Source: Nanobdellota archaeon (lineage in GTDB: Archaea > Nanobdellota > Nanobdellia > Parvarchaeales > Parvarchaeaceae). From it: 48,281 bases of DNA. Both the position numbers and the translations under genes were made by a program. This document shows positions 18,064-44,035 of this stretch, piece after piece. The DNA lies in assembly GCA_021811735.1 (NCBI GenBank), contig JAJZNK010000015.1:1-48281 (forward strand). The letters run 5' to 3'. The notes under the pieces were generated by a model. The model was not told the origin of the DNA. It searched no databases and worked only from the letters and a program-made list of their open reading frames with translations. Every line of letters starts with the position of its first letter. The first letter of the stretch is position 1.

Positions 18064-19542
18064 GTGGAAAAGGAAGCTTACGATATTATGTTGAATTCTG
18101 CGCTCAATTCTACTGCGCTTGCAGGTCACCACATTACTTCATTTGAGTACTTTATAGACAAGGGGTTACAGAGAATAATAGAAACTGAGGGGCTTGTAGA
18201 ACCGTCTATAAAGCCGACAGGTTTTAATGATTTTAAGATAAAGATAAATAAAATAACTATAGGTAAGCCAGACATAATAGAATCTGACAGCATAGTTAGG
18301 GCCATAATGCCGATGGAGGCGAGGATTAGAGATTTAACTTATGATGCACCGTTGATGATAACCGTTTCATATCTCGGAGACGGAAAAACCATTGCAGAAG
18401 AAGAAGTCTTCATAGGAAGAATGCCAATAGTGATAAAATCAAAATACTGTAACTTATATGGATTATCTAAAGAGGACCTTATCCACGCTAAAGAGGACCC
18501 TACGGATCCGGGTGGCTACTTTATTATAAACGGGACCGAGAGAATAATTATAACAACAGAAGATTTGGCTCCAAATAATATATTAATAACAAAAGATAAT
18601 CAAGAGGGCTTCAAGTTCAGCGCAAAAATATTTGCAGATGCAGATGCCATAAAAGTTCCGCATACTATCCAGCTCTCAAGCAGTAACCTCCTTTACATAA
18701 CTTTTGGAAAACTTAAGAGAGTCCCACTTGTTATGCTTATAAAGGCCTTAGGGGTTACAAATGAAAATGAGCTTATAAAGAAAATAGGAAAGGGCGATGA
18801 TGATATAATAAATACCGTAGATATGAACCTTATAGCCTTTGACATCGACACGGAAAATTCGGCATTGGATACGATAGGTAAGATGCTTCATTCGGTTCAT
18901 ACAAAAGAAACCGCTGAACTTAATATAGATTCATTGTTATTTCCTTTCTTTGGCAGAGACAAAGACTCAAGAAAAGTAAAAGCAGAATACTTGATGTTTA
19001 TTTCCAATCTATTGGTAAAAAGTGCCATCCGTGGAACAGAAGTTGACAAGGATCATTACTCAAACAAGAGGTTACACGCAGAAAGTTACAATCTAGACAT
19101 GTTATTTAGGTTCATATTTAAGCAGATACTTAACGATGCAAAATATAATTTCGAAAAGGGCATAAGGAAGGACAAGATACCTAGCCCTAAGTACATATTC
19201 ACATCTGATCAACTGACTGCGAGATTACGTTCCTCACTGGCAACTGGACAATGGGTTGGCGGGAGAGTTGGTATAACGCAGCACTTAGACAGGAGAAGTT
19301 TCCCTGCTACAATATCGCATCTTAGGAAAGTAGAGTCGCTTCTTACTTCAAATAGGGAAAACTACAGAGCCAGAGACCTGCATGGTACACAATTCGGCAG
19401 ATTCTGCGCAGTCGAGACCCCAGAAGGTCCAAAAATTGGTTTGACTAAAAATATGGCAACGCTTTCAATGATGTCAAAAGAAGGAGTAGATACAGCAACT
19501 ATAAAAGAACTCCTTAAAGACTACGGGGTGAAAAAGATATGA
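18064..19542 (+). CDS. rpoB2: DNA-directed RNA polymerase subunit B'' (N-terminal half of split subunit B)
   Basis: HHITSFEYFIDKGLQRII, GYFIINGTERIIIT, and ends with RFCAVETPEGPKIGLTKN...; GTG start 2 nt after the rpoH stop. Confidence 0.93.
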   Translation: MEKEAYDIMLNSALNSTALAGHHITSFEYFIDKGLQRIIETEGLVEPSIKPTGFNDFKIKINKITIGKPDIIESDSIVRAIMPMEARIRDLTYDAPLMITVSYLGDGKTIAEEEVFIGRMPIVIKSKYCNLYGLSKEDLIHAKEDPTDPGGYFIINGTERIIITTEDLAPNNILITKDNQEGFKFSAKIFADADAIKVPHTIQLSSSNLLYITFGKLKRVPLVMLIKALGVTNENELIKKIGKGDDDIINTVDMNLIAFDIDTENSALDTIGKMLHSVHTKETAELNIDSLLFPFFGRDKDSRKVKAEYLMFISNLLVKSAIRGTEVDKDHYSNKRLHAESYNLDMLFRFIFKQILNDAKYNFEKGIRKDKIPSPKYIFTSDQLTARLRSSLATGQWVGGRVGITQHLDRRSFPATISHLRKVESLLTSNRENYRARDLHGTQFGRFCAVETPEGPKIGLTKNMATLSMMSKEGVDTATIKELLKDYGVKKI

Positions 19543-21341
19543 GTTTCGTTTTTGTGAATGGCGTTCTTTCAGGCACTACGGATGATTCGGAAAAGTTGGT
19601 TAAATCAATAATAGAAGATAGGAGAATAGGAAAGATTCCAAAGGAAGTTAATGTTAGATACAGAAAAGATACAGATAGTGTCATGGTAAATTCAGATGGA
19701 GGCAGGCTTCTAAGGGCATTGATAGTAGTTAAGAATGGTAAGCCACTGGTTTCGAAAGATGATGTTAAATTACTTGCTGAAGGCCATATAAATTGGCAGG
19801 ATCTTATAGATAAAGGTAAAATAGAATATATCGACGCAGATGAAGAAGAACTCGCATTTACTGCTTTGAAGGAAGAGGACCTCACTCCAGCGCATACGCA
19901 TTTGGAGATAACTCCTTTATCAGTTTTCGGAACACAAGCCTCTCTGCTTCCATTTATAAATCACAGTAATGCACACAGAAATGTTACCGCTGTAAAAAGT
20001 GTGCAGCAGGGCGTTGGTGTATACACGACAAATTATCTCATAAGGCATGACAATGATTCTATGATTGCAATAGATCAGCAAGTACCTATTGTTAAGACAA
20101 AAATGTATGATAACGAAAATTTCAATTCCCATGTTTTCGGCCAGAATATAGTAGTAGCTGTATTGTCGTATCTCGGGTACAACATGGACGACGCGATAAT
20201 AATAAACAAATCCTCTGTAGAGAGAGGGTTGTTCAGAGCAATGTTCTTCAGACCTTATAAAGTAGAGGAGACCAAATATGTCGGCGGTCAAAGCGATCTT
20301 ATAACTATGCCGGACAAAGACGTGGCAGGCTACAGATCTGAAGAAGCATATAAATATCTTGATGAGGATGGGATATCAGCAGTAAATTCACATGTAAATA
20401 GTGGTGATGTTCTTATAGGTAGAGTATCTCCCCCAAGATTTGTATCCTCTATAGATAAGTTTAGGTTAGGGGTGCAAAAGCAGGTAGAATCTTCGATAGA
20501 GTGTCGTACTGGAGAGAGTGGAACAGTCGAAAATGTTTTCGTCACGTCTACTGCCGAAGGTAACAAATACATCTCACTTAAGATAAGACAAGACAGGAAA
20601 GTAGAAATAGGCGATAAATTTGGGCCAAGAAGCGGGCAGAAAGGAGTCGTAGGAATGCTCCTAAATCAAGAGGATATGCCGTTTACTTATTCAGGAATAG
20701 TGCCTGACCTCATCTTTTCCCCATATTCGATACCTACAAGAATGTCCATGGCGTATTTGCTTGAGTTAATTGGTGGAAAAGTAGGTGCATTGGGTGGAAG
20801 ACGTATCGATGGTACATCTTTCACAGGTGAAAAGGAAGAAGATTTAAGAAAAGAATTAATGGAATACGGGTTTAGAGAGAACGGCGTTGAAACGATGTAT
20901 AACGGAATAACTGGTGAAGAGATGCAAGTCAGGATTTTTGTGGGAGATATGACATACATACGTTTGAAACATTTCGTTGCTAACAAGATACAATGGAGGG
21001 CTAGAGGGCCGATTCAGTTGCTTAATAGACAACCAACAGAGGGTAAATCCAAGAGTGGTGGTCTAAGACTTGGGGAAATGGAGAAAGATTGTTTTGTTGC
21101 TTATGGTTCAGCTATGGCTCTGAAGGAAAGATTTGACTCTGATAAGATAACCATACCTGTTTGTTCGAAATGTGGAATGGTTTCGGTATATAATGTAAAG
21201 AAAAGGACTGGTTACTGTCCAATAGATGGTGAAGACGTTCAGATAAAACTGATTGAGGTTTCTGCCTCATTCAAGATATTGCTCGATGAGCTTAAAGCGG
21301 TAGGGATATATCCAAAAATGGTTTTGGGGAGTAAAGTATGA
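19539..21341 (+). CDS. rpoB1: DNA-directed RNA polymerase subunit B' (C-terminal half of split subunit B)
   Basis: GDKFGPRSGQKGV, FSPYSIPTRMSMAYLLE, LKHFVANKIQWRARGP, GGLRLGEMEKDC, C-terminal Zn-ribbon region. ATGA overlap with rpoB''. Confidence 0.93.
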   Translation: MSFVFVNGVLSGTTDDSEKLVKSIIEDRRIGKIPKEVNVRYRKDTDSVMVNSDGGRLLRALIVVKNGKPLVSKDDVKLLAEGHINWQDLIDKGKIEYIDADEEELAFTALKEEDLTPAHTHLEITPLSVFGTQASLLPFINHSNAHRNVTAVKSVQQGVGVYTTNYLIRHDNDSMIAIDQQVPIVKTKMYDNENFNSHVFGQNIVVAVLSYLGYNMDDAIIINKSSVERGLFRAMFFRPYKVEETKYVGGQSDLITMPDKDVAGYRSEEAYKYLDEDGISAVNSHVNSGDVLIGRVSPPRFVSSIDKFRLGVQKQVESSIECRTGESGTVENVFVTSTAEGNKYISLKIRQDRKVEIGDKFGPRSGQKGVVGMLLNQEDMPFTYSGIVPDLIFSPYSIPTRMSMAYLLELIGGKVGALGGRRIDGTSFTGEKEEDLRKELMEYGFRENGVETMYNGITGEEMQVRIFVGDMTYIRLKHFVANKIQWRARGPIQLLNRQPTEGKSKSGGLRLGEMEKDCFVAYGSAMALKERFDSDKITIPVCSKCGMVSVYNVKKRTGYCPIDGEDVQIKLIEVSASFKILLDELKAVGIYPKMVLGSKV

Positions 21342-23860
21342 AATTAGACTCAAATTTTGTTTTCAGTAAGATAGCTTCACTGGAGTTTGGTATCCTTTCT
21401 CCTAAAACTATACAGAAAATGAGTGCAGTCGCAATAACATCGTCAGAACTTTATGATATAGATGGATTCCCAGTAGATGGTGGTTTATCTGACCTTAGAA
21501 TGGGGGTAATAGATCCTGGACTGACATGTAAAACTTGTGGAAATACAATAAGAGATTGTCCAGGCCACTTTGGCCACTTGGAGCTGGCAAGACCTGTGTT
21601 TAATATCAAGACAGTGCCCTACGTTTATAACATATTGAATGCGACTTGTAATTCATGTGGTAGGGTACTTATATCTGATGATCACTTAAAAAAACTGAGC
21701 GAGGAGATAATATCCGCTGAGATAAATGAAGGGCATAAGAAGAAGATAAAACTTATTAAAGCACTTATAAAGCATGCAAAAAATGTTACTGTCTGTCCGT
21801 TTTGTAGGACAAAACAGGCCAAGGTAAAGCTGGAGAAACCGTATACTTTTGTTGATGCCGACCAAAAATTGACACCTATAGATGTACTTAACAGGCTGGA
21901 AAAAATAAAAGATTCCGATTTGCAGTTCTTTGGGTTGGATCCAGATTATTCCAGACCAGAATGGATGATAGTATCGATACTTGCCGTTCCGCCTATAACT
22001 ATAAGGCCTTCGATAACGCTGGAGAATGGACAGAGAAGTGAAGATGACCTTACCCACAAATTAACAGACATTGTAAGAACAAATCAGAGACTTGCAGAGA
22101 ATATAAGGTCTGGTGCCCCAGAAATTATAATAGACGAGCTTTGGGACCTCCTTCAGTATCATATAACTACTTTTATATCAAACGATTCTGCGCAAGTTCC
22201 AGTGGCACGACAGAAATCCAATAAGAAACTGAAAAGTCTCGAAGATAGAATAAAAGGAAAGGAAGGTCTTTTCAGAGGATCCGGTCTGGCTAAACGTGTG
22301 AATTACGGTGCAAGATCAGTGATATCCCCAGATTCGTTTCTTAGATTTGATGAAGTCGGTGTACCTCTAAAGGTTGCAAAAGAAATAACTTATCCTGAGC
22401 GCGTTACCGACATAAACATAGACCGACTGAAAAGCCTTGTCAAAAGCTTCGATGCTTATCCCGGTGCTAATTATGTAATAACTCCAGATGGAATAAAAAA
22501 GAAAATAACAGAGACTACTGTTAGTAATATATTAGATGAGCTTAAAGTAGGTTACATAGTTGAAAGACACATTAAAGATGGTGATATAATACTATTCAAT
22601 CGTCAACCTTCACTTCATCGTTTATCAATAATGGGCCACAGCGTTAAGGTATTACCCTACAGCACTCTCGGGATAAACCCAGCATCTACTCTTCCATACA
22701 ATGCAGACTTCGACGGAGATGAAATGAACATACACGTGTTGCAGAACGAAGAAGCGCTTGCAGAGGCTGACATGATTATAAACATAAAAAACAACATAGT
22801 TTCACCAAGGCATGGTCTTCCTTTGATAGGAGCAGCGCAAGACTACGTTTCTGGATGTGCGTTACTGACTTCAGGTGAAACAACTTTTGAAAAAGAGAAG
22901 GTTGAGTTCTTACTTTCAAATATAGGTATAATAACAACACTAAAGAACAAAAAATATTCTGGGAGGGAGATATTCAGCATGATTCTACCGGACGATTTGA
23001 ATTTTGAAAGTAACAGTAGTACATACAAAATTACAAAGGATGACGATTCGATAGTTAAGATAAAGAATGGTAAGCTTGTCAGCGGAGTGATAGACGCGGC
23101 AACAATTGGAAGAGAAAGTGGTAGCCTTCTTCAATTCCTTTTCGTAAGATATGGTTCTGATGTTACCGCGAAGTTCATAGACCAGGCAAATAAAATAGGG
23201 TTGATGTCTCTTTTTATGATGGGTATGAGCGTAAACATACGTGATTTTGATATTCCTAAAGCCGCAAATACCGATATAGAAAAAGTGGTTGCTGACGCAG
23301 AAAAAGAAGTATCTGAACTTTTAAAGGATTATGACGATGTAGCTGAAGCAAAGATTCTTAGTATTGCGAATAAAACGAGGATCAAGGTCAGGAACATAAT
23401 AGATACCTATATAGAAAAGAAAAACAACAATGTAGAGTCTATGATTACAACGGGTGCTAAGGGCAGTATAACAAATCTTATACCAACTGTTGGACTTGTA
23501 GGTCAGCAGATGTTGAGAGACGTAAGAATTAGCAATGGTTTCTCCGATAGACTTACTTCACATTTTAAGAAAAATGATAATGGGCTTATTGCAAGAGGAT
23601 TTATCGTTTCAAATTATAGAGAGGGCTTGAATCCCGTGGAATATTTCCTTCACTCAGCAAGTAGTAGAGAGGGGTTAATGGACAATGTTATCCGTACACC
23701 GATTTCAGGGTACATGCAGAGAAGGTTGTCTTCTGCACTTCAAGATTTAAAGGTAAGCGACGACCTTTCAGTAAGACTTGGCTCATCCATAGTACAGTTT
23801 AAGTACGGAGAAGATGGATTGGATGTATCAGCCAGTGACAAGGGGGATCTTAAGTTATGA
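21338..23860 (+). CDS. rpoA1: DNA-directed RNA polymerase subunit A'
   Basis: Zn motifs [17 protein letters not shown] and CNSCG...CPFC; catalytic [10 protein letters not shown]; 840 aa. ATGA overlap with rpoB'. Confidence 0.95.
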
Positions 23861-24984
23861 AAATAGAAATTCCTGAAAAATATATAATTGCATTTAAGAA
23901 AAAATACGGAGAGGATGCCGACATATCTGAGCTTGAGAAGATATACATAAGATCTTTAGTTACTCCTGGTGAAGCAGTGGGAGTAATCGCTGCTCAGAGT
24001 ATAGGTGAAGCAAGTACTCAGCTTACTCTTAGGACAAAACACGCGGCAGGTCTTTCGGTTATAAATACCACTACTGGTTTGCCAAGGTTAGTAGAAATAT
24101 TCGATGCTAAAAAGGATATCTCAACACCATTTATGGATATATACTTAAAGCCAGAATATTCAAAATCAAAAGAGAAGGCAGGAGATTTCGCATCAAAAAT
24201 AATCGAGATAAAAATAGGGGACGTAACATCATCCTACACAGTATCCTTAAGGAAGAAGGAGATAATGTTCACGATGGATAAAGCGCTGATAAAGGATTAC
24301 GGTTTTACTGTAAAAGATGTAACTTCAAGATTATCAAATATGAAAGTATCGACAACACTAGAGGGTGATCAGTTGCTCGTCGTGGATAAATCTGCCGACA
24401 GCGTTAAGAAACTTATACGGTTAAGAAACAAGATAGTTAACATCACAGTTTCTGGTATTTCGAATGTTTCCAGAGCTATACTAAACCAGAATAAGGAGGG
24501 GGAATATTGGGTAAAAACAATAGGAACAAATCTTACAGAAGTATTAAAAATGGAAGAAGTTGATACTTCTAAAACAGTTTCGAATGATATAATAGAGGTC
24601 TCAAAGGTATTAGGGATAGAATCTGCAAGAAACCTTATCATAGAAGAGGTGAGGGGCACACTTGAAAATGTAGGTCTTATCGTTGACTTAAGACATATCT
24701 TCCTGATAGCCGATGCAATGTGTCTGGATGGGACTGTAAGAGGTATAGGTAGGTACGGATTAAGCGGAGAAGCAGACTCTGTGCTTGCGAGAGCATCGTT
24801 CGAAGTTCCATTTAAGCACTTAGTTGAAGCTGGATTATATCACGAATCTGATCCATTTAAATACGTTGCGAACAATATAGTCTCTAATCAGGTAATCCCA
24901 GTGGGAACAGGAGAAGTAAAATTAGTGGTGAAAGAAAATGGAAAAGGACATAGCAAAGAAAATGCAGGAGAAAATAAAGAGTAA
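23857..24984 (+). CDS. rpoA2: DNA-directed RNA polymerase subunit A''
   Basis: [25 protein letters not shown] (trigger-loop region), and the C-terminal [18 protein letters not shown] overlap with rpoA'. Confidence 0.93.
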
Positions 24985-28365: not shown

Positions 28366-28893
28366 ATGAATAAGAAAGGACAGATTTTTACAATTGATCT
28401 TTTAATTGCATTGTTTATATTTCTGCTTCTTTTCACAACAGTATTGCTTTTTCTCTATTCGACTGCTGATATAAACAACACTTATTCCACTTACTACTCG
28501 CAGATAGCTTCTAATTATATAAATAACCTAGCTGTCCAAGGTGCCAATTCTCTTATAGGTTCGGTTGGATACCCTCAAGATTGGCCCTCGGTTTCGTGCA
28601 GCAGTATAAAACAAATGGGCGTGATGCATAATACTTTGGAGGCATCACCATCCAAGTTATACAATATTACGGCCCTGCCGGTTTCATGTCTTTCCGCACT
28701 TTTAAAGGGAGGGAATTCGTTTAATATAACATTTTACTATCTAAACAGTTCTATGTTGAAGATAAATTCGGTACCAATAACAGTAGGTTTCCCGATAGAC
28801 TTTTCTGCTAGCTACATTGCGTCTATAGACCGATTTATAGTCCTATATCCTGGGAACGAAATAATACGACTTTCATACACGGAGTGGACATGA
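28366..28893 (+). CDS. Class III signal peptide (type IV pilin-like) protein
   Basis: The N-terminus MNKKGQ/IFTIDLLIALFIFLLLFTTVLLFLY has a short basic leader, a KGQ processing-site-like motif and a hydrophobic helix. The rest is S/T/N-rich. Confidence 0.65.
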   Translation: MNKKGQIFTIDLLIALFIFLLLFTTVLLFLYSTADINNTYSTYYSQIASNYINNLAVQGANSLIGSVGYPQDWPSVSCSSIKQMGVMHNTLEASPSKLYNITALPVSCLSALLKGGNSFNITFYYLNSSMLKINSVPITVGFPIDFSASYIASIDRFIVLYPGNEIIRLSYTEWT

Positions 28894-29600
28894 AAAAAGG
28901 ACAGGTATTTACAATAGATTTGGTTGTAGGTAGTATAATAATCTTGAGTGTTATAACTTCTGCTTATGCTATAACGAACTATTACGTTTCGTTGAACAGC
29001 TCAATAACCACAAATAACAACTTCGTATCCTTAGTTTATTCCGCAATATCTTCTTTTTCTACAGTCTCCTCAACGGAAAATGCCATACTCCAATTTCAAA
29101 ATAGTGGGTCTTCATCAGCGCTTTCTGATTATGTCTCTTCCGTCCTAGGCGCAGAAGTACACGGGCCATTCATGTTAAATATTCTAACTAAGAACAATTA
29201 TTCCTCTTCCAATGTACCTAATCTGTTAATATTCTCCTATAATTCTGGCATTTCGTCATCATCATCCTACCTTCAATTCTACGAACCTATACTAATAACC
29301 AACTATAGCAGTGCATGCGGTTCCTCATGCAATCCCTCTCTTTCCGTAAAAAGCGTTTTTCCGTCTTATAATACCACTATAAACGCTATAAACTGTAACG
29401 TTGTTTACGACAATGGCAGTGCTACTGGCTGGACCATATTAAACAACACCCCCTCCGGAGACTGCACAATCGAGGTTCCTACCTATGCCAATCCGAACAA
29501 TTACGACGTAGTTACAACTTCTTCTAGCGGTAATCCGACTGGCTCTGCGACACTGTATATACTCGGACTTGATCTTATACAGTTTAAAGTCGCAAAGTGA
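28884..29600 (+). CDS. Class III signal peptide (type IV pilin-like) protein, paralogous N-terminus to the preceding gene
   Basis: MDMKKGQ/VFTIDLVVGSIIILSVITSAYAI. The body is S/T/N-rich with many N-x-S/T sequons. Overlaps the upstream gene by 10 nt. Confidence 0.65.
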   Translation: MDMKKGQVFTIDLVVGSIIILSVITSAYAITNYYVSLNSSITTNNNFVSLVYSAISSFSTVSSTENAILQFQNSGSSSALSDYVSSVLGAEVHGPFMLNILTKNNYSSSNVPNLLIFSYNSGISSSSSYLQFYEPILITNYSSACGSSCNPSLSVKSVFPSYNTTINAINCNVVYDNGSATGWTILNNTPSGDCTIEVPTYANPNNYDVVTTSSSGNPTGSATLYILGLDLIQFKVAK

Positions 29601-36726: not shown

Positions 36727-37104
36727 ATGTCATTTGAAAGAAGAGCACAAGGCTTGCCAATCAATACAATTATATTGATTGCAGTGGGTTTGCTTATTTT
36801 GGTATTGCTTATAACTTTCGTTTTGGGAGGTTTTAAGGGGTTGGGGGCTGCTTCGCCTGCCAGTTCAACATTATCTACGTTCTCTGCCACGTGCTCCTCT
36901 TATTCTACGGTCGTGCCTGCTAGTTTAGGTTTTTCAGACTGGTGTACTGATGTCGTTGCGAATCCGTCAGGATCTGGAGTTTATCACTGTTATTCTGATC
37001 TGTCCGTTGCGCCAGGGACAACACAGACGGCAAATCCGACAACCATAGTCCTTAGCAATGGAACAGAGGTAGGTTACACTGACTGTCAAGCTGCATATCC
37101 TTAG
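36727..37104 (+). CDS. Class III signal peptide (type IV pilin-like) protein
   Basis: MSFERRAQG/LPINTIILIAVGLLILVLLITFVLGG has a basic leader, a G at the putative -1 position and a hydrophobic helix. The body is S/T/A/C-rich with 6 Cys. Confidence 0.6.
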   Translation: MSFERRAQGLPINTIILIAVGLLILVLLITFVLGGFKGLGAASPASSTLSTFSATCSSYSTVVPASLGFSDWCTDVVANPSGSGVYHCYSDLSVAPGTTQTANPTTIVLSNGTEVGYTDCQAAYP

Positions 37105-37164: not shown

Positions 37165-37809
37165 ATGGCTTCAAAACAAGGTACAACGCTTAGTAATATC
37201 TTAGCCATAGTGTTGTTGATAATCATTCTAGTGGCTGTCTTCTATGGATTTAAATCTCACATAATGGTTTTTAATTCGTGTTATTTTTCGAATTCTACAT
37301 TAGCAGTCAATAGCAATGGACCATTTTGCCTTGCGAATAATGTTATCAACATAATAATAAACCGATCAATACTATCCTACTATTCGAATTCTACATTAGC
37401 AGTTCATAACCAAAACGTTTCAGCACTACCATTTTCTTTTTTGGACGGGAAACCGTATATAACAGTGTGGAATGAACCCTCCAGTATAGGTTTGGATTCG
37501 TATTCATTTTTAACCATACCTGATACTTTTAAAGTCCACATGCAATATAATGCGACTGCAGACACATATTTTATAGTAATGACAAATCAGCAGTATATAT
37601 CTTGGGTTAGAAACGGGGGCAGCCTTGTAAACGATACAACGCTTCTAACAAAGGGAAAGAATGTTGCTGTTTGGTTTAATGAAAGCACTGGTTGCGCTGG
37701 ATATGTTGCAGTAATAGAATCCACAAATAAGCAGCCGGTTTCCATAACTCCTAATGAGCAGATATTGTATGATCCGGCAAGCGCCCCGACTGGAGCGTGT
37801 ATTACATAG
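37165..37809 (+). CDS. Class III signal peptide-like secreted or surface protein
   Basis: MASKQG/TTLSNILAIVLLIIILVAVFYGF. The body is N-x-S/T-rich and contains an in-frame internal 21-nt exact repeat. Confidence 0.55.
   Translation: MASKQGTTLSNILAIVLLIIILVAVFYGFKSHIMVFNSCYFSNSTLAVNSNGPFCLANNVINIIINRSILSYYSNSTLAVHNQNVSALPFSFLDGKPYITVWNEPSSIGLDSYSFLTIPDTFKVHMQYNATADTYFIVMTNQQYISWVRNGGSLVNDTTLLTKGKNVAVWFNESTGCAGYVAVIESTNKQPVSITPNEQILYDPASAPTGACIT
37287..37403 (+). repeat. Two exact 21-nt direct repeats (TTCGAATTCTACATTAGCAGT) at 37287-37307 and 37383-37403
   Basis: Read directly from the sequence. The spacing is 96 nt (32 codons), in frame, and both copies encode SNSTLAV. Confidence 0.9.
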
Positions 37810-37848: not shown

Positions 37849-38460
37849 ATGGAAGTTGATGTTTTTGACGCGGTAAACGAATTGAAAAGTTTTTATGATG
37901 AGAATTCAGCCCTCTCTAAAATAAGTGGTTTGGTAAATTACAAGAAGGTTGAGATTAGCATGGAATATAAGGAAGGAGTTATACGAATAAAAGTTCAACA
38001 TCCTCTTTCAATAAAAGTGTATAAGATATATAACATACTTATGAGACTTTTCCTTATAAAATCCGTCAAATTGACGATGGATTTTATCGAAAATAACAAA
38101 CAAAAATCCGTATCGAAACAATTCGGCCCGAATGAAAACATAGATCCTATAATAGAAGACTTAAGGGGATTGCCACATGATACTATCTCCGATATAGTAA
38201 TCGATACCGATTATTTTAAACTTGTGGAAACACAAGATATGAGCGACAATGTCTCTATAATGCTAAAGAAAAACGGAAAGAAAGAACTTTTTAAAAGTTT
38301 CTCAAATTATCTTTTCCCGTTCATAAATATGCCTGCAAACGAGTCTTTAAAAGAAGAAATATCTTTTTTAAAGAGTAACGATGAGTTAACTGTCGATATA
38401 TCTATGAGAGTGGATAACTCACCGATGGGTATAAAATCAAAAAAAGTAAAATTAGTTTAA
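37849..38460 (+). CDS. Hypothetical 203-aa cytoplasmic protein, first gene of the KaiC-like/GTPase/Roadblock run
   Basis: ORF with a TATA-like box at -27 and no recognisable motif. It ends 4 nt before the next gene. Confidence 0.5.
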   Translation: MEVDVFDAVNELKSFYDENSALSKISGLVNYKKVEISMEYKEGVIRIKVQHPLSIKVYKIYNILMRLFLIKSVKLTMDFIENNKQKSVSKQFGPNENIDPIIEDLRGLPHDTISDIVIDTDYFKLVETQDMSDNVSIMLKKNGKKELFKSFSNYLFPFINMPANESLKEEISFLKSNDELTVDISMRVDNSPMGIKSKKVKLV

Positions 38461-39167: not shown

Positions 39168-40406
39168 ATGGTCGAATATAAGGGTTTAGATGGATTGCCT
39201 GAAGAAATAGACCCCTATTTTGGTATAGCAAAACTCGATGAACAGTTGAAAGGGATTCCATCAAAAAAAATAGTCCTTATATCAGCTTCACCGTCGGTTG
39301 GAAATGAAGTTTTTGGTTATCAGATAATAAGTAAGAACGTAAACTCCAACGTAAAAACTGTAGTGTTTCTGAATAGAACTTCTCCACAGTCGTATCTTAC
39401 GGAAATGAAAGAATATGATTTACCATCGAATAATAACTTGGTTATAATAGATGCATATAGCGGAATAACCGGTATAAAATCAGACGAGACCGACCATGTA
39501 AGAGTTATAGATAACCCATATGACAAAGAGGAAGTTAAATCCAAAATAGTCTCAGAACTTAAGAAGGGTTACGGCCTTCTGGTCATAGATTCACTTTCAC
39601 TACTGATAGATTTCTTCGACTTCGACTATGTAAATTCGTTGGTAGCTGCCATAAAGAAATCCATTGAGGAAAACGATTCAGCAGCAGTCTTCCTGTTTAC
39701 GGATTGGGGATACGAAAAGGAAAGCCTGCAGAAGTTAAGTTCAAATTCCAATTCCACTATAGAAATAAAAGGTATAGAAAAACGGGTTATATTCGGACAG
39801 TATTTTGCGGTTCTTAACTGTGACTGGCTTGAATCTAAGCAAGGGTTCTCAGCAGTCTTATTCAAGGCGATGAAGCCTGGAGGAATAAAAGTGTATTTCC
39901 CGAAAATACTTGTAACAGGCCCTACGGATGCGGGTAAAAGTTCATTTATACACAGTGCTTCCAAAAACGCAGTCAGCGTAGATAAACTCGGTGGTACAAT
40001 AGCGTTAGACCATGGTAATGTTGATTTTGAGGGTTATCGCGCGGATTTATTTGGTACACCTGGGCAGGAAAGATTCGATCCTCTTCTAAAAATGTTGGGA
40101 GGGGAGGCTATAGGCGTTTTCCTTGTAGTGGACTCGACAAAACCAGAGCAGTTTCCGAGAGCTATAGAAATGCTTAGAAAGACGGAAACATATGGTTTAC
40201 CTGTGGTAGTTGTCGCTAATAAATCAGATTTAGAAGGGGCATTGGGAAAAGAGGAAATAAGAGAAAAGCTTCATCTTGATTCTAATATTACTTTAATACA
40301 GACTTTTGCACAGGATTTGTCAAAGGTTGATCCAAACGAGCCGACAAAATTAAAAGAGGCAGGAATACACGAAGCTCTTTCAGCTCTTTTCAAACAATTG
40401 ACATAG
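39168..40406 (+). CDS. Fusion protein: degenerate KaiC/RecA-like N-domain plus a C-terminal small Ras-superfamily (MglA/COG2229-like) GTPase
   Basis: N-domain: GIAKLDEQLKGIPSKKIVLISASPSVGNEVFGYQII has the KaiC-like layout, but the P-loop lysine is lost (SPSVGNEV); Walker-B-like LLVIDSLS. C-domain: G1 GPTDAGKS, G3 DLFGTPGQERF, G4 VANKSD. Confidence 0.7.
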   Translation: MVEYKGLDGLPEEIDPYFGIAKLDEQLKGIPSKKIVLISASPSVGNEVFGYQIISKNVNSNVKTVVFLNRTSPQSYLTEMKEYDLPSNNNLVIIDAYSGITGIKSDETDHVRVIDNPYDKEEVKSKIVSELKKGYGLLVIDSLSLLIDFFDFDYVNSLVAAIKKSIEENDSAAVFLFTDWGYEKESLQKLSSNSNSTIEIKGIEKRVIFGQYFAVLNCDWLESKQGFSAVLFKAMKPGGIKVYFPKILVTGPTDAGKSSFIHSASKNAVSVDKLGGTIALDHGNVDFEGYRADLFGTPGQERFDPLLKMLGGEAIGVFLVVDSTKPEQFPRAIEMLRKTETYGLPVVVVANKSDLEGALGKEEIREKLHLDSNITLIQTFAQDLSKVDPNEPTKLKEAGIHEALSALFKQLT

Positions 40407-41252: not shown

Positions 41253-41336
41253 GCTCAGGTTGCGTAACCTGGCATCGCGTAAGCCTGGAGAGCTTATGGG
41301 AGCAATCCCTTGAGGGTTCGAATCCCTCCCTGAGCG
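41253..41336 (+). tRNA. tRNA-Ser(GGA), no intron
   Basis: Acceptor GCTCAGG/CCTGAGC with G73. Anticodon arm TAAGC-CTGGAGA-GCTTA. Long variable arm TGGGAGCAATCCCTT. T arm GAGGG-TTCGAAT-CCCTC. Confidence 0.85.
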
Positions 41337-43358: not shown

Positions 43359-43535
43359 ATGTTAGGTAATAAGAAGGGTATGGAGCTAGGGATAACTATA
43401 ATAGTAATTATAGTGATTGCGTTAGCTTTATTGGTTATACTGTTGTTCCTTCTTAAGAGTGGAATATTTACACCGATTACCGGTTTGTTGAAATCTTCTC
43501 CGAACACAACTAGTATTAATAACTCACTTCCATAA
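43359..43535 (+). CDS. Small (58 aa) class III signal peptide-like protein (absent from the ORF track)
   Basis: Hand translation gives MLGNKKG/MELGITIIVIIVIALALLVILLFLLKSGIFTPITGLLKSSPNTTSINNSLP*. It has a basic leader ending in KKG followed by a long hydrophobic helix. It competes with the antisense ORF 43301..43507, which lacks any such signal. Confidence 0.45.
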   Translation: MLGNKKGMELGITIIVIIVIALALLVILLFLLKSGIFTPITGLLKSSPNTTSINNSLP

Positions 43536-43591: not shown

Positions 43592-44035
43592 TCAGCATTT
43601 GAAGTAATAAAGATTATAGTTTTTACCAGACTTTATTCTGAGCGTTTTAGTTTTGCTAGTCGAAGTTGTAGCATTTGAACATAGAGTTTTGTAGCTAGAT
43701 ATTATAGGATAGATTACAAGTGAATAGTTGCCAGAAGATGACTGTACTCTTATGCTGTCATTTAAATATTCCGTGTAGTTTACGCTGTTAAAGTTTATAG
43801 TCCAGCTGTAAATTATACTTGGAAAAGGTGTACACGAGGAAGAGCAATTATACGCTGTAAAATTGGTTGTGACTTCAGAAAATTGCCCAGTGCTTGAAGT
43901 TTTCAGGTCATTTGTTAATCCGTTTAGATTACTCATTATATAAGTCCTTATAGTTGAATCAAATATGAGTAGTATGACTATGGCTATTATTGCAGTTATT
44001 AACACCCAAGCACTGAAATTTATTTGTCCCTTCAT
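43592..44035 (-). CDS. Class III signal peptide (type IV pilin-like) protein
   Basis: MKGQ/INFSAWVLITAIIAIVILLIF. The body is S/T/N/Y-rich with several N-x-S/T sequons. The ATG overlaps the stop of the upstream methyltransferase gene by 4 nt. Confidence 0.6.
   Translation of the reverse strand: MKGQINFSAWVLITAIIAIVILLIFDSTIRTYIMSNLNGLTNDLKTSSTGQFSEVTTNFTAYNCSSSCTPFPSIIYSWTINFNSVNYTEYLNDSIRVQSSSGNYSLVIYPIISSYKTLCSNATTSTSKTKTLRIKSGKNYNLYYFKC

Follow-up and report, generated by a model that had tools for sequence, protein, structure and literature searches.

The stretch of DNA analysed here, referred to below as the window, is 48,281 nucleotides long and comes from a Nanobdellota archaeon (contig JAJZNK010000015.1 of assembly GCA_021811735.1); it is a fragment of an archaeal chromosome with a low GC content (~35%). 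One of its genes encodes a protein of two domains, in which a KaiC-like domain that has lost its catalytic motifs (an inactivated KaiC, or iKaiC, domain) is followed by a small GTPase of the Ras superfamily that we assign, from its motifs and its gene partner, as putatively MglA-like. This fusion gene belongs to a cluster of six same-strand genes separated by gaps of 4-60 bp and encoding, in order, a pilin-like protein, a protein with an N-terminal helix, a 203-aa protein, a KaiC-like paralogue, the fusion, and a Roadblock/LC7 protein; the cluster is a probable operon (Table 1).

The fusion protein and its two domains

The two domains are read from a single frame. Neither a stop nor a frameshift occurs at the junction in the assembled frame, and the junction consensus, PGG(237-239)-x-K-x-Y-x-PK(245-246), is invariant in alignments of 70-117 homologues drawn from independent assemblies and phyla. 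An internal start that would yield a separate GTPase was considered and rejected, as Met235, near the junction, is not conserved among the 117 full-length homologues from which all residue counts given here are taken. In the AlphaFold2 model of the fusion (predicted local distance difference test score, pLDDT, 88; predicted template modelling score, pTM, 0.78), ordered beta-strands lie across and on both sides of the junction, which suggests that the domains are rigidly coupled and not merely tethered to each other. With an uninterrupted 412-aa frame, an invariant junction, and full-length fusions in many genomes, the single polypeptide proposed in the original prediction, which had been made from the sequence without database searches, holds good.

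The N-terminal domain matches the Pfam family KaiC (PF06745) at residues 19-220, with 33.7 bits against a cut-off of 26.6. A profile built from an alignment of 70 full-length homologues, and used for the comparisons with solved structures, matches PH0284 (2dr3; E=3e-25), PH0186 (4e-23), SSO2452 (8e-16), and also cyanobacterial KaiC; and when the model is compared by Foldseek, the template modelling (TM) scores are 0.84 for PH0284, 0.81 for FlaH/ArlH (4yds) and 0.80 for SSO2452. The fold is thus that of KaiC and RecA, as had been proposed, and not an unrelated one. The family profile also touches Pfam DUF7090, DUF7125 and DUF7504, and weak matches to Pfam PAXNEB/Elp4 are seen in some homologues and neighbours.

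The Walker A signature GxxxxGK[ST] of KaiC/RecA-like ATPases is absent from this domain: SPSVGNE stands opposite GPGTGKT, and the position of the Walker-A lysine is occupied among the homologues by Asn (85), Gly (16), Ser (8), Asp (4) or Val (2), and never by Lys (0/117), which bears out the earlier view of the domain as a KaiC-like pseudo-ATPase. The losses extend beyond what had been noticed, since the catalytic Glu-Glu pair and the equivalent of the arginine finger are gone as well: the two positions of the pair carry R/S/N/T and K/T/A/M/S, with no Glu among the five commonest residues, and the K224/R226 region of KaiC aligns with N217/D219, so that the equivalent of R226 (the arginine finger) is D219. 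Judged by these alignments, the domain is devoid of the residues needed for ATP hydrolysis, a loss that is family-wide, and it is most likely unable to bind ATP in the normal way.

The domain is nonetheless far from decayed. The remodelled loop that takes the place of Walker A is itself conserved (P-[GSA]-[VI]-[EG]-N-x-x-F-[GA]-Y-Q, with P42 in 116/117, F49 in 116/117 and Q52 in 115/117 homologues), and outside this loop ~25 positions of the domain are invariant or nearly so in the alignment of 70 homologues; the strongly conserved residues include D24, P42, F49, Q52, D95, Y97, S98, D141, S144, D148, W180, Y182, W220, F232 and K233. Because residues beyond the catalytic ones are so strongly conserved, the domain is evidently under selection for a non-catalytic function. 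A KaiC-family fold, lost catalytic motifs and a conserved domain are together what defines iKaiC (a concept taken from PMC5847659), and all three are seen here.

The C-terminal domain is matched by Pfam Arf (41.4 bits) and Ras (34.9 bits), and also by Roc and MMR_HSR1, at residues 246-407. Its standing as a small GTPase, which had been in need of support from profile searches, is secured by the NCBIfam model small_GTP (TIGR00231; 58.9 bits against a cut-off of 42.5), and the 70-homologue profile matches Arl3/Arf at ~1e-13, the nearest solved structures being Arf, Arl and Rab. All the motifs quoted in the original prediction (SASPSVGNEV and LLVIDSLS in the first domain; G1, G3 and G4 in the second) are present. 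G1 (GPTDAGKS, with its invariant GK) and G4 (NKSD) are intact as described; G3 is present and keeps its catalytic Gln300, but it is not the canonical DxxGQ, because an invariant Gly stands where the Asp would be (GTPGQ). The residue before the G2 threonine, position 276, is Thr in 72 and Gly in 42 of the homologues (Gly276 in the window) and is not Arg, and a G5-like Ala381 is nearly invariant. The domain therefore carries, on the evidence of its motifs, a putatively complete set of those expected of a working GTPase switch.

Two variants of these motifs deserve mention. NKxN takes the place of NKxD at G4 in 47 of the 117 homologues; the same substitution moves Ras and EF-Tu towards xanthine nucleotides, and base specificity may be altered in part of the fusion family. 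In addition, a metagenome cluster representative that is 99.8% identical to the window's protein (P0001) has Lys at position 277, the G2 position at which the window has Thr; the Lys reflects a sequencing error or else natural variation in switch I.

MglA groups 2-5, archaeal group 4 included, have GTPGQ as their G3 signature, and in these groups a Thr replaces the arginine finger of group 1 (PMC4316618, Wuichet & Sogaard-Andersen 2014). In Thermus MglA the intrinsic Arg53 stands beside Thr54 (R53-T54; PMC3199381); because Gly or Thr precedes the G2 threonine in the fusion, the intrinsic Arg53 mechanism is inapplicable here. The assignment of the GTPase as MglA-like is made from its G3 signature and its coupling to a Roadblock gene, and is to be taken as provisional.

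Homologues and gene neighbourhood

The closest relatives of the fusion, at 79-85% identity, are found in Candidatus Parvarchaeota/Parvarchaeum (ARMAN-4/5-like DPANN archaea), together with one metagenome entry at 99.8%, and full-length homologues of 41-100% identity are spread across many archaeal phyla. Of 8000 candidates scored in a search of the protein database, 991 were relatives; GTPase Pfam matches are present in nearly all of the top 120, most of which match KaiC too, and their lengths are almost all 380-426 aa (three are shorter, mostly partial). In the source annotations the relatives are called just 'GTP-binding protein' or 'ATPase domain-containing protein'. When one genome for each GTDB species was scanned, 339 loci that encode a relative came to light. 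The best 80 of these hold full-length fusions, except for three that are cut or partially matching, and belong to Parvarchaeota, Nanoarchaeota/Woesearchaeota, Altiarchaeota, Archaeoglobaceae, Methanoperedens and ANME-2, Hydrothermarchaeota, Thermofilaceae, Alkanophaga, and Halobacteriota metagenome-assembled genomes (MAGs).

Searched on its own against 1.8 billion representatives, the N-terminal domain matched 104 clusters, about half of them fusions; the rest are proteins of ~200-290 aa, among which are at least two complete stand-alone iKaiC genes, and an intact GK[ST] was found in none of the closer matches of this search. When a split version of the fusion was sought, the two stand-alone iKaiC genes examined, P0138 and P0178 (~230 aa), proved to have no GTPase neighbour. 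The architecture had been called unusual. Taken to mean rare, the word does not fit a protein with ~1000 database relatives in many archaeal phyla, and the inactivated KaiC domain is, according to PMC5847659, an already recognised class of archaeal signalling domain.

For the gene neighbourhoods, open reading frames (ORFs) were called in 85 fetched loci and in the window, clustered, and searched with small hidden Markov models made from window and locus proteins; the counts are split between 34 Parvarchaeota-type loci and 44 other loci. The KaiC-like paralogue lies directly 5' of the fusion in 32/34 Parvarchaeota-type and 24/44 other loci. In line with the Roadblock-regulated GTPase of the original prediction, a Roadblock/LC7 gene lies directly 3' of the fusion in 34/34 and 25/44, respectively, and within six genes in 30/44 of the latter. 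The fusion and these two neighbours constitute a conserved triad.

The upstream paralogue, which is ~20% identical to the N-terminal domain of the fusion, is degenerate in a different way. Its Walker A reads GNKESGKE, in which the GK is kept and the Ser/Thr is replaced by Glu, and the catalytic Glu pair is lost; among the upstream paralogues at large the pattern is G-x-x-x-S-G-K, with the Lys in 51/55 and Glu at the Ser/Thr position in 36/55. On these residues, the protein may bind nucleotide, and hydrolysis is unlikely. The Roadblock proteins have in common a [DN]-G-L motif (D40/N16; G56/56), which matches the Asp/Asn-Gly pair of MglB proteins coupled to MglA of groups 2-5, for which an Asp-Gly pair has been reported (PMC4316618).

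Beyond the triad the flanks change from lineage to lineage, housekeeping genes being frequent (an AIR-synthase-like protein, SepRS, ribosomal S19e), and TrmB, PAS and V4R proteins occur near the module in some lineages. A V4R-domain protein is found nearby in 11/44 of the other loci and in 0/34 of the Parvarchaeota-type loci, the window included; in Archaeoglobaceae and some other lineages its gene comes right after the Roadblock gene (L004:7519-8106 and 11 further loci), and in those lineages it may equip the module to sense small molecules. In a Nanoarchaeota MAG (L047:11551-16456, JAHJSS010000031.1), the region 3' of the fusion holds three Roadblock paralogues alternating with pairs of predicted membrane proteins, and the Roadblock array is thus expanded.

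Of the remaining genes of the window's cluster, one encodes a pilin-like protein and another a possible minor pilin. The pilin-like N-terminus of the first gene product is conserved in 25 Parvarchaeota loci, and pilin-like genes lie within six genes of the fusion in 29 of the 34 Parvarchaeota-type loci. One of the further pilin-like ORFs of the window (28366-28893) clusters with a pilin of the Nanoarchaeia type IV pilus operons in two loci (L001 and L047). The 203-aa protein is found in Parvarchaeota only (29 database relatives) and its gene always precedes that of the KaiC-like paralogue; its AlphaFold model (pLDDT 91, pTM 0.86) consists of repeated units of a helix and 2-3 strands, and nothing in the PDB resembles the fold significantly (Foldseek E at best 4e-3, TM <= 0.2).

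Outside Parvarchaeota, the fusion of the Nanoarchaeota MAG L047 lies inside a complete type IV pilus operon, in the order pilins (with KAQ/ISTEF-type signals), T2SSE, two T2SSF, fusion, Roadblock. In Archaeoglobus JdFR-22 the series T2SSE-T2SSF-adhesin-KaiC-like is followed directly by the fusion, and T2SSE/T2SSF genes lie within 10 kb of it in a second Nanoarchaeia genome and a Hydrothermarchaeota MAG. Earlier work on archaeal type IV pilus loci named KaiC-family ATPases and Roadblock proteins (arCOG02603) among their frequent neighbours and made no mention of a small GTPase (PMC4858521, Makarova, Koonin & Albers).

The flanks of the cluster are housekeeping genes (split rpoB, rpoA'/A'', Rad50/Mre11, RtcB, an ABC ATPase with ferredoxin-type domains, ThrRS, and GatD/E); the rpoB gene split into two ORFs and followed by rpoA' and rpoA'' (18064-24984) and the tRNA-Ser(GGA) at 41253-41336, between the cluster and the ThrRS gene, are ordinary archaeal features. 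No arl genes or archaellum operon are present in the window. An anti-phage defence system was considered and rejected, PADLOC having given only a sub-threshold P-loop match (mad8, E=3.6e-4) and no stretch that passes alone.

Table 1. Positions of the fusion gene, its domains and motifs, and the associated genes in the window; counts in the remarks refer to the 117 full-length homologues, and a slash within a signal sequence separates its two parts.
Feature	Position	Strand	Remarks
iKaiC and putative MglA-like GTPase fusion gene	39168..40406	+	one open frame, 412 aa, stop-free
N-terminal KaiC/RecA-fold pseudo-ATPase domain	39222..39896	+	aa 19-243; Pfam KaiC, profile against 2dr3, Foldseek
Degenerate Walker A, SASPSVGNEV (aa 39-48)	39282..39311	+	aligned to PH0284 GGPGTGKT: Lys to Asn46, Thr to Glu47
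R70-T71 in place of the catalytic Glu-Glu pair	39375..39380	+	alignment to 2dr3 and KaiC
Retained Walker-B-like strand, LLVIDSLS (aa 137-144)	39576..39599	+	D141 in 105/117, S144 in 117/117; opposite VVVDSVTT of 2dr3
Domain junction, PGGIKVYFPK	39876..39905	+	P237, G238, G239 and P245 invariant; K246 in 116/117
C-terminal Ras-superfamily GTPase domain	39903..40388	+	aa 246-407; Arf/Ras/Roc/MMR_HSR1 matches, TIGR00231
G1/P-loop, GPTDAGKS (aa 251-258)	39918..39941	+	G256 and K257 invariant; position 258 S or T in 117/117
G2, switch-I Thr277	39996..39998	+	Thr in 116/117; codon ACA in the window
G3, GTPGQ (aa 296-300; GTPGQERF 296-303)	40053..40067	+	invariant in the 117 homologues, including catalytic Gln300
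G4, NKSD (aa 351-354), guanine specificity	40218..40229	+	N351 and K352 invariant; position 354 D in 70, N in 47 of 117
KaiC-like paralogue, 222 aa	38465..39133	+	DUF7504/KaiC; adjoins the fusion upstream
Roadblock/LC7 (MglB-like) protein, 124 aa	40437..40811	+	Pfam Robl_LC7, E=4.7e-13
203-aa protein	37849..38460	+	ends 4 bp before the KaiC-like paralogue; probably same operon
Second protein, with N-terminal hydrophobic helix; possibly a minor pilin	37165..37809	+	Pfam Flp1_like only faint, E=0.05
Pilin-like protein, first gene of the cluster	36727..37104	+	class III signal-peptide-like N-terminus, RRAQG/LPINTIILIAVGLLILVL
Further pilin-like ORFs	28366-28893, 28884-29600	+	class III signal-like N-termini (MNKKGQ/IFTIDL, MKKGQ/VFTIDL and others)
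Further pilin-like ORFs	43359-43535; 43592-44035	+; -	class III signal-peptide-like N-termini

A candidate signalling module and its alternatives

We hypothesize, with moderate confidence, that the fusion is a two-domain signalling protein that joins an iKaiC scaffold to a Roadblock-regulated GTPase switch, with a pilus output in some lineages. The iKaiC domain would most likely serve for oligomerisation or docking, probably assembling with the degenerate KaiC-like protein encoded upstream into a non-catalytic ring or scaffold, by analogy with the hetero-rings of RecA-like pseudo-ATPases. The MglA-like domain would be a nucleotide-dependent ON/OFF switch, and the Roadblock/LC7 protein encoded downstream, by analogy with MglB, a regulator acting both as a dimer that stimulates GTP hydrolysis (a GTPase-activating protein) and as a platform; the triad would then form a self-contained module across Archaea. 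In Parvarchaeota, to which the window belongs, and in a few other lineages, its output is likely to be the control of the assembly of type IV pilus-like filaments, in which the iKaiC part may have a docking role like that of ArlH. That the fusion physically links KaiC-type oligomers to a GTPase cycle, as the original prediction proposed, is a reasonable inference. Seen as a natural 'Rosetta stone', the fusion suggests that iKaiC scaffold and MglA-like switch work together in a single complex, and two evident partners are encoded next to it.

Several points weigh against this hypothesis. No experimental study of any member of the fusion family was found in the literature. No pilus ATPase or platform gene lies within the window; only 4 of the ~44 distinct non-Parvarchaeota loci show a pilus association, a frequency that we judge to exceed a rough chance expectation of 2-3% (an estimate, not a computed value) and is suggestive, not proof; and the Parvarchaeota loci count as about one observation because they are syntenic. 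In Altiarchaeota and Methanoperedens the neighbours of the fusion are housekeeping genes, and ~40% of the non-Parvarchaeota loci are without the upstream paralogue or an adjacent Roadblock gene. Within the protein itself, the GTPase domain is without an intrinsic arginine finger, and the N-terminal domain may bind some ligand, given its retained Walker-B Asp and conserved pocket.

The last of these points leads to an alternative that we regard as unlikely: that the N-terminal domain is a ligand sensor, binding a nucleotide, phosphate or small molecule without hydrolysing it and gating the GTPase allosterically. The retention of the Walker-B Asp (105/117) and of Ser144 (117/117), the high conservation of the remodelled loop itself at P42, F49 and Q52, and a rigid, invariant junction suited to allosteric coupling are all consistent with such a sensor. 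It is harder to reconcile with the replacement of the phosphate- and Mg2+-contacting Lys and Thr by Asn and Glu, by which the loop gains an acidic residue that disfavours the binding of a triphosphate, and the sequence alone implies no ligand.

A second alternative concerns the output. The module could be a switch for signal transduction or polarity in general, with no tie to pili, its pilin and T2SSE/T2SSF neighbours being coincidental or a lineage-specific co-option. In favour of this, 40 of the 44 non-Parvarchaeota loci are without pilus genes within 10 kb, the accessory neighbours that recur are of sensor or regulator types (V4R in 11/44, also PAS and TrmB), and the remaining flanks are housekeeping genes. 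Yet at least three lineages unrelated to one another have the fusion within genuine pilus operons, and it has a cotranscriptional layout with pilin-like genes in Parvarchaeota, and we consider a module with no connection to pili doubtful.

Finally, the proposition that two genes have been merged, by chimeric assembly or by an overlooked stop or frameshift, is vanishingly improbable and is refuted by the comparative data: no support for it was found, though stand-alone iKaiC homologues of ~230 aa exist and show that the N-terminal domain can stand by itself, and against it stand the continuous frame, the junction, invariant across 117 homologues from separate assemblies and phyla, the best genome loci from independent assemblies, which are nearly all full-length fusions, and the dozens of full-length homologues of 380-415 aa predicted from independent sources.

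The hypothesis of a scaffold joined to a Roadblock-regulated switch can be carried further, in a form that we hold to be distinctly unlikely as it stands: a hetero-oligomeric ring of the paralogue and the N-terminal domain of the fusion would dock, as ArlH does, on an ATPase of the pilus/archaellum type, and a GTPase cycle set by the Roadblock protein would replace the ATP timing and phosphorylation of KaiC. If true, this would be a GTP-timed archaeal controller of surface-filament assembly, present also in ultrasmall DPANN archaea such as Parvarchaeota, and mechanistically unlike both ArlH and MglA/SofG.

No description of a fusion of KaiC with a small GTPase was found in the full-text literature, a search in which the 2017 survey of KaiC proteins (mBio 8:e01959-17) was not covered and an earlier computational mention is possible; the supplement of a census of archaeal type IV pili held nothing decisive on the fusion. 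Both halves are of recognised kinds (iKaiC, and an MglA/MglB-type pair), and it is their combination that constitutes an uncharacterised architecture. It has been proposed that the main signalling hubs specific to archaea are KaiC-family proteins, and the pairing of small GTPases with Roadblock proteins is of interest for how GTPase regulation arose in eukaryotes. To our knowledge, almost none of these archaeal KaiC-family and GTPase-Roadblock proteins have been studied experimentally. With the partners encoded beside it, the fusion makes a small, defined set of three or four proteins open to expression and testing, and its carriers include cultivable or enrichable lineages (Archaeoglobaceae, Methanoperedens) besides DPANN archaea. 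Should the link to pili be borne out, no GTPase-based regulator of archaeal type IV filaments would precede it.

Comparison with known systems

The nearest parallel to the GTPase half is the MglA/MglB pair of Myxococcus xanthus and Thermus thermophilus and of groups 2-5, with which the fusion has in common a GTPase whose G3 is without Asp (here GTPGQ) and an adjoining Roadblock/LC7 gene with the Asp/Asn-Gly pair. In bacteria, the ATPases of type IV pili are under the control of MglA and SofG (PMC4316618). The differences are considerable: MglA is a single-domain protein, a class from which the two-domain protein of 412 aa is excluded, whereas here the GTPase is the C-terminal half of an iKaiC fusion; group 1 MglA has Arg53, where the fusion has Gly or Thr before the G2 threonine; MglA is absent from the best 60 solved-structure matches, Arf, Arl and Rab being nearest by sequence; and the NCBIfam MglB equivalog scores 18.7 bits, against a cut-off of 200. 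The actinobacterial conservon (CvnA-D) likewise contains a module of a small GTPase and a Roadblock-fold partner, but it includes a histidine kinase and a DUF742 protein and has no KaiC-like component (PMC4316618).

For the other half, iKaiC domains of archaeal signalling proteins have been described by Makarova, Galperin & Koonin (2017, as cited in PMC5847659). The fusion resembles them in its KaiC-family fold, in the loss of the catalytic motifs, and in being joined to signalling domains or encoded beside them; the fusion partners named in PMC5847659 are REC, HalOD1 and similar domains, while here the partner is a small GTPase.

With ArlH/FlaH the protein shares a KaiC/RecA fold of ~230 aa (the model and FlaH 4yds superpose with the TM score given above, 0.81) and, in some lineages, a place among type IV-filament genes, and docking on an ArlI/PilB-type ATPase is plausible. 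ArlH has an intact ATP-binding Walker A and no GTPase fusion; in the fusion Walker A is absent, and there is no archaellum operon. Membership of ArlH/FlaH was rejected on the NCBIfam scores (ArlH 20.3 bits against 215; FlaH 34.9 against 194), as was that of the bona fide KaiC ATPases, for which the NCBIfam scores are far under the cut-offs and Walker A and the Glu pair are lost.

Two eukaryotic systems and one archaeal system invite wider comparison. In Rag/Ragulator, a GTPase works with Roadblock-fold partners, and Rag, like the fusion, is a GTPase joined to a non-catalytic domain; the extra domain of Rag has a Roadblock fold and is C-terminal, unlike the N-terminal iKaiC domain here. The Elp4/5/6 ring of Elongator, a eukaryotic complex that acts in tRNA modification and has no GTPase, is a precedent, in structural and conceptual likeness only, for RecA-like paralogues without a P-loop that form a hetero-oligomeric scaffold; and the rings of ArlH on ArlI are a further precedent for the proposed ring or scaffold.

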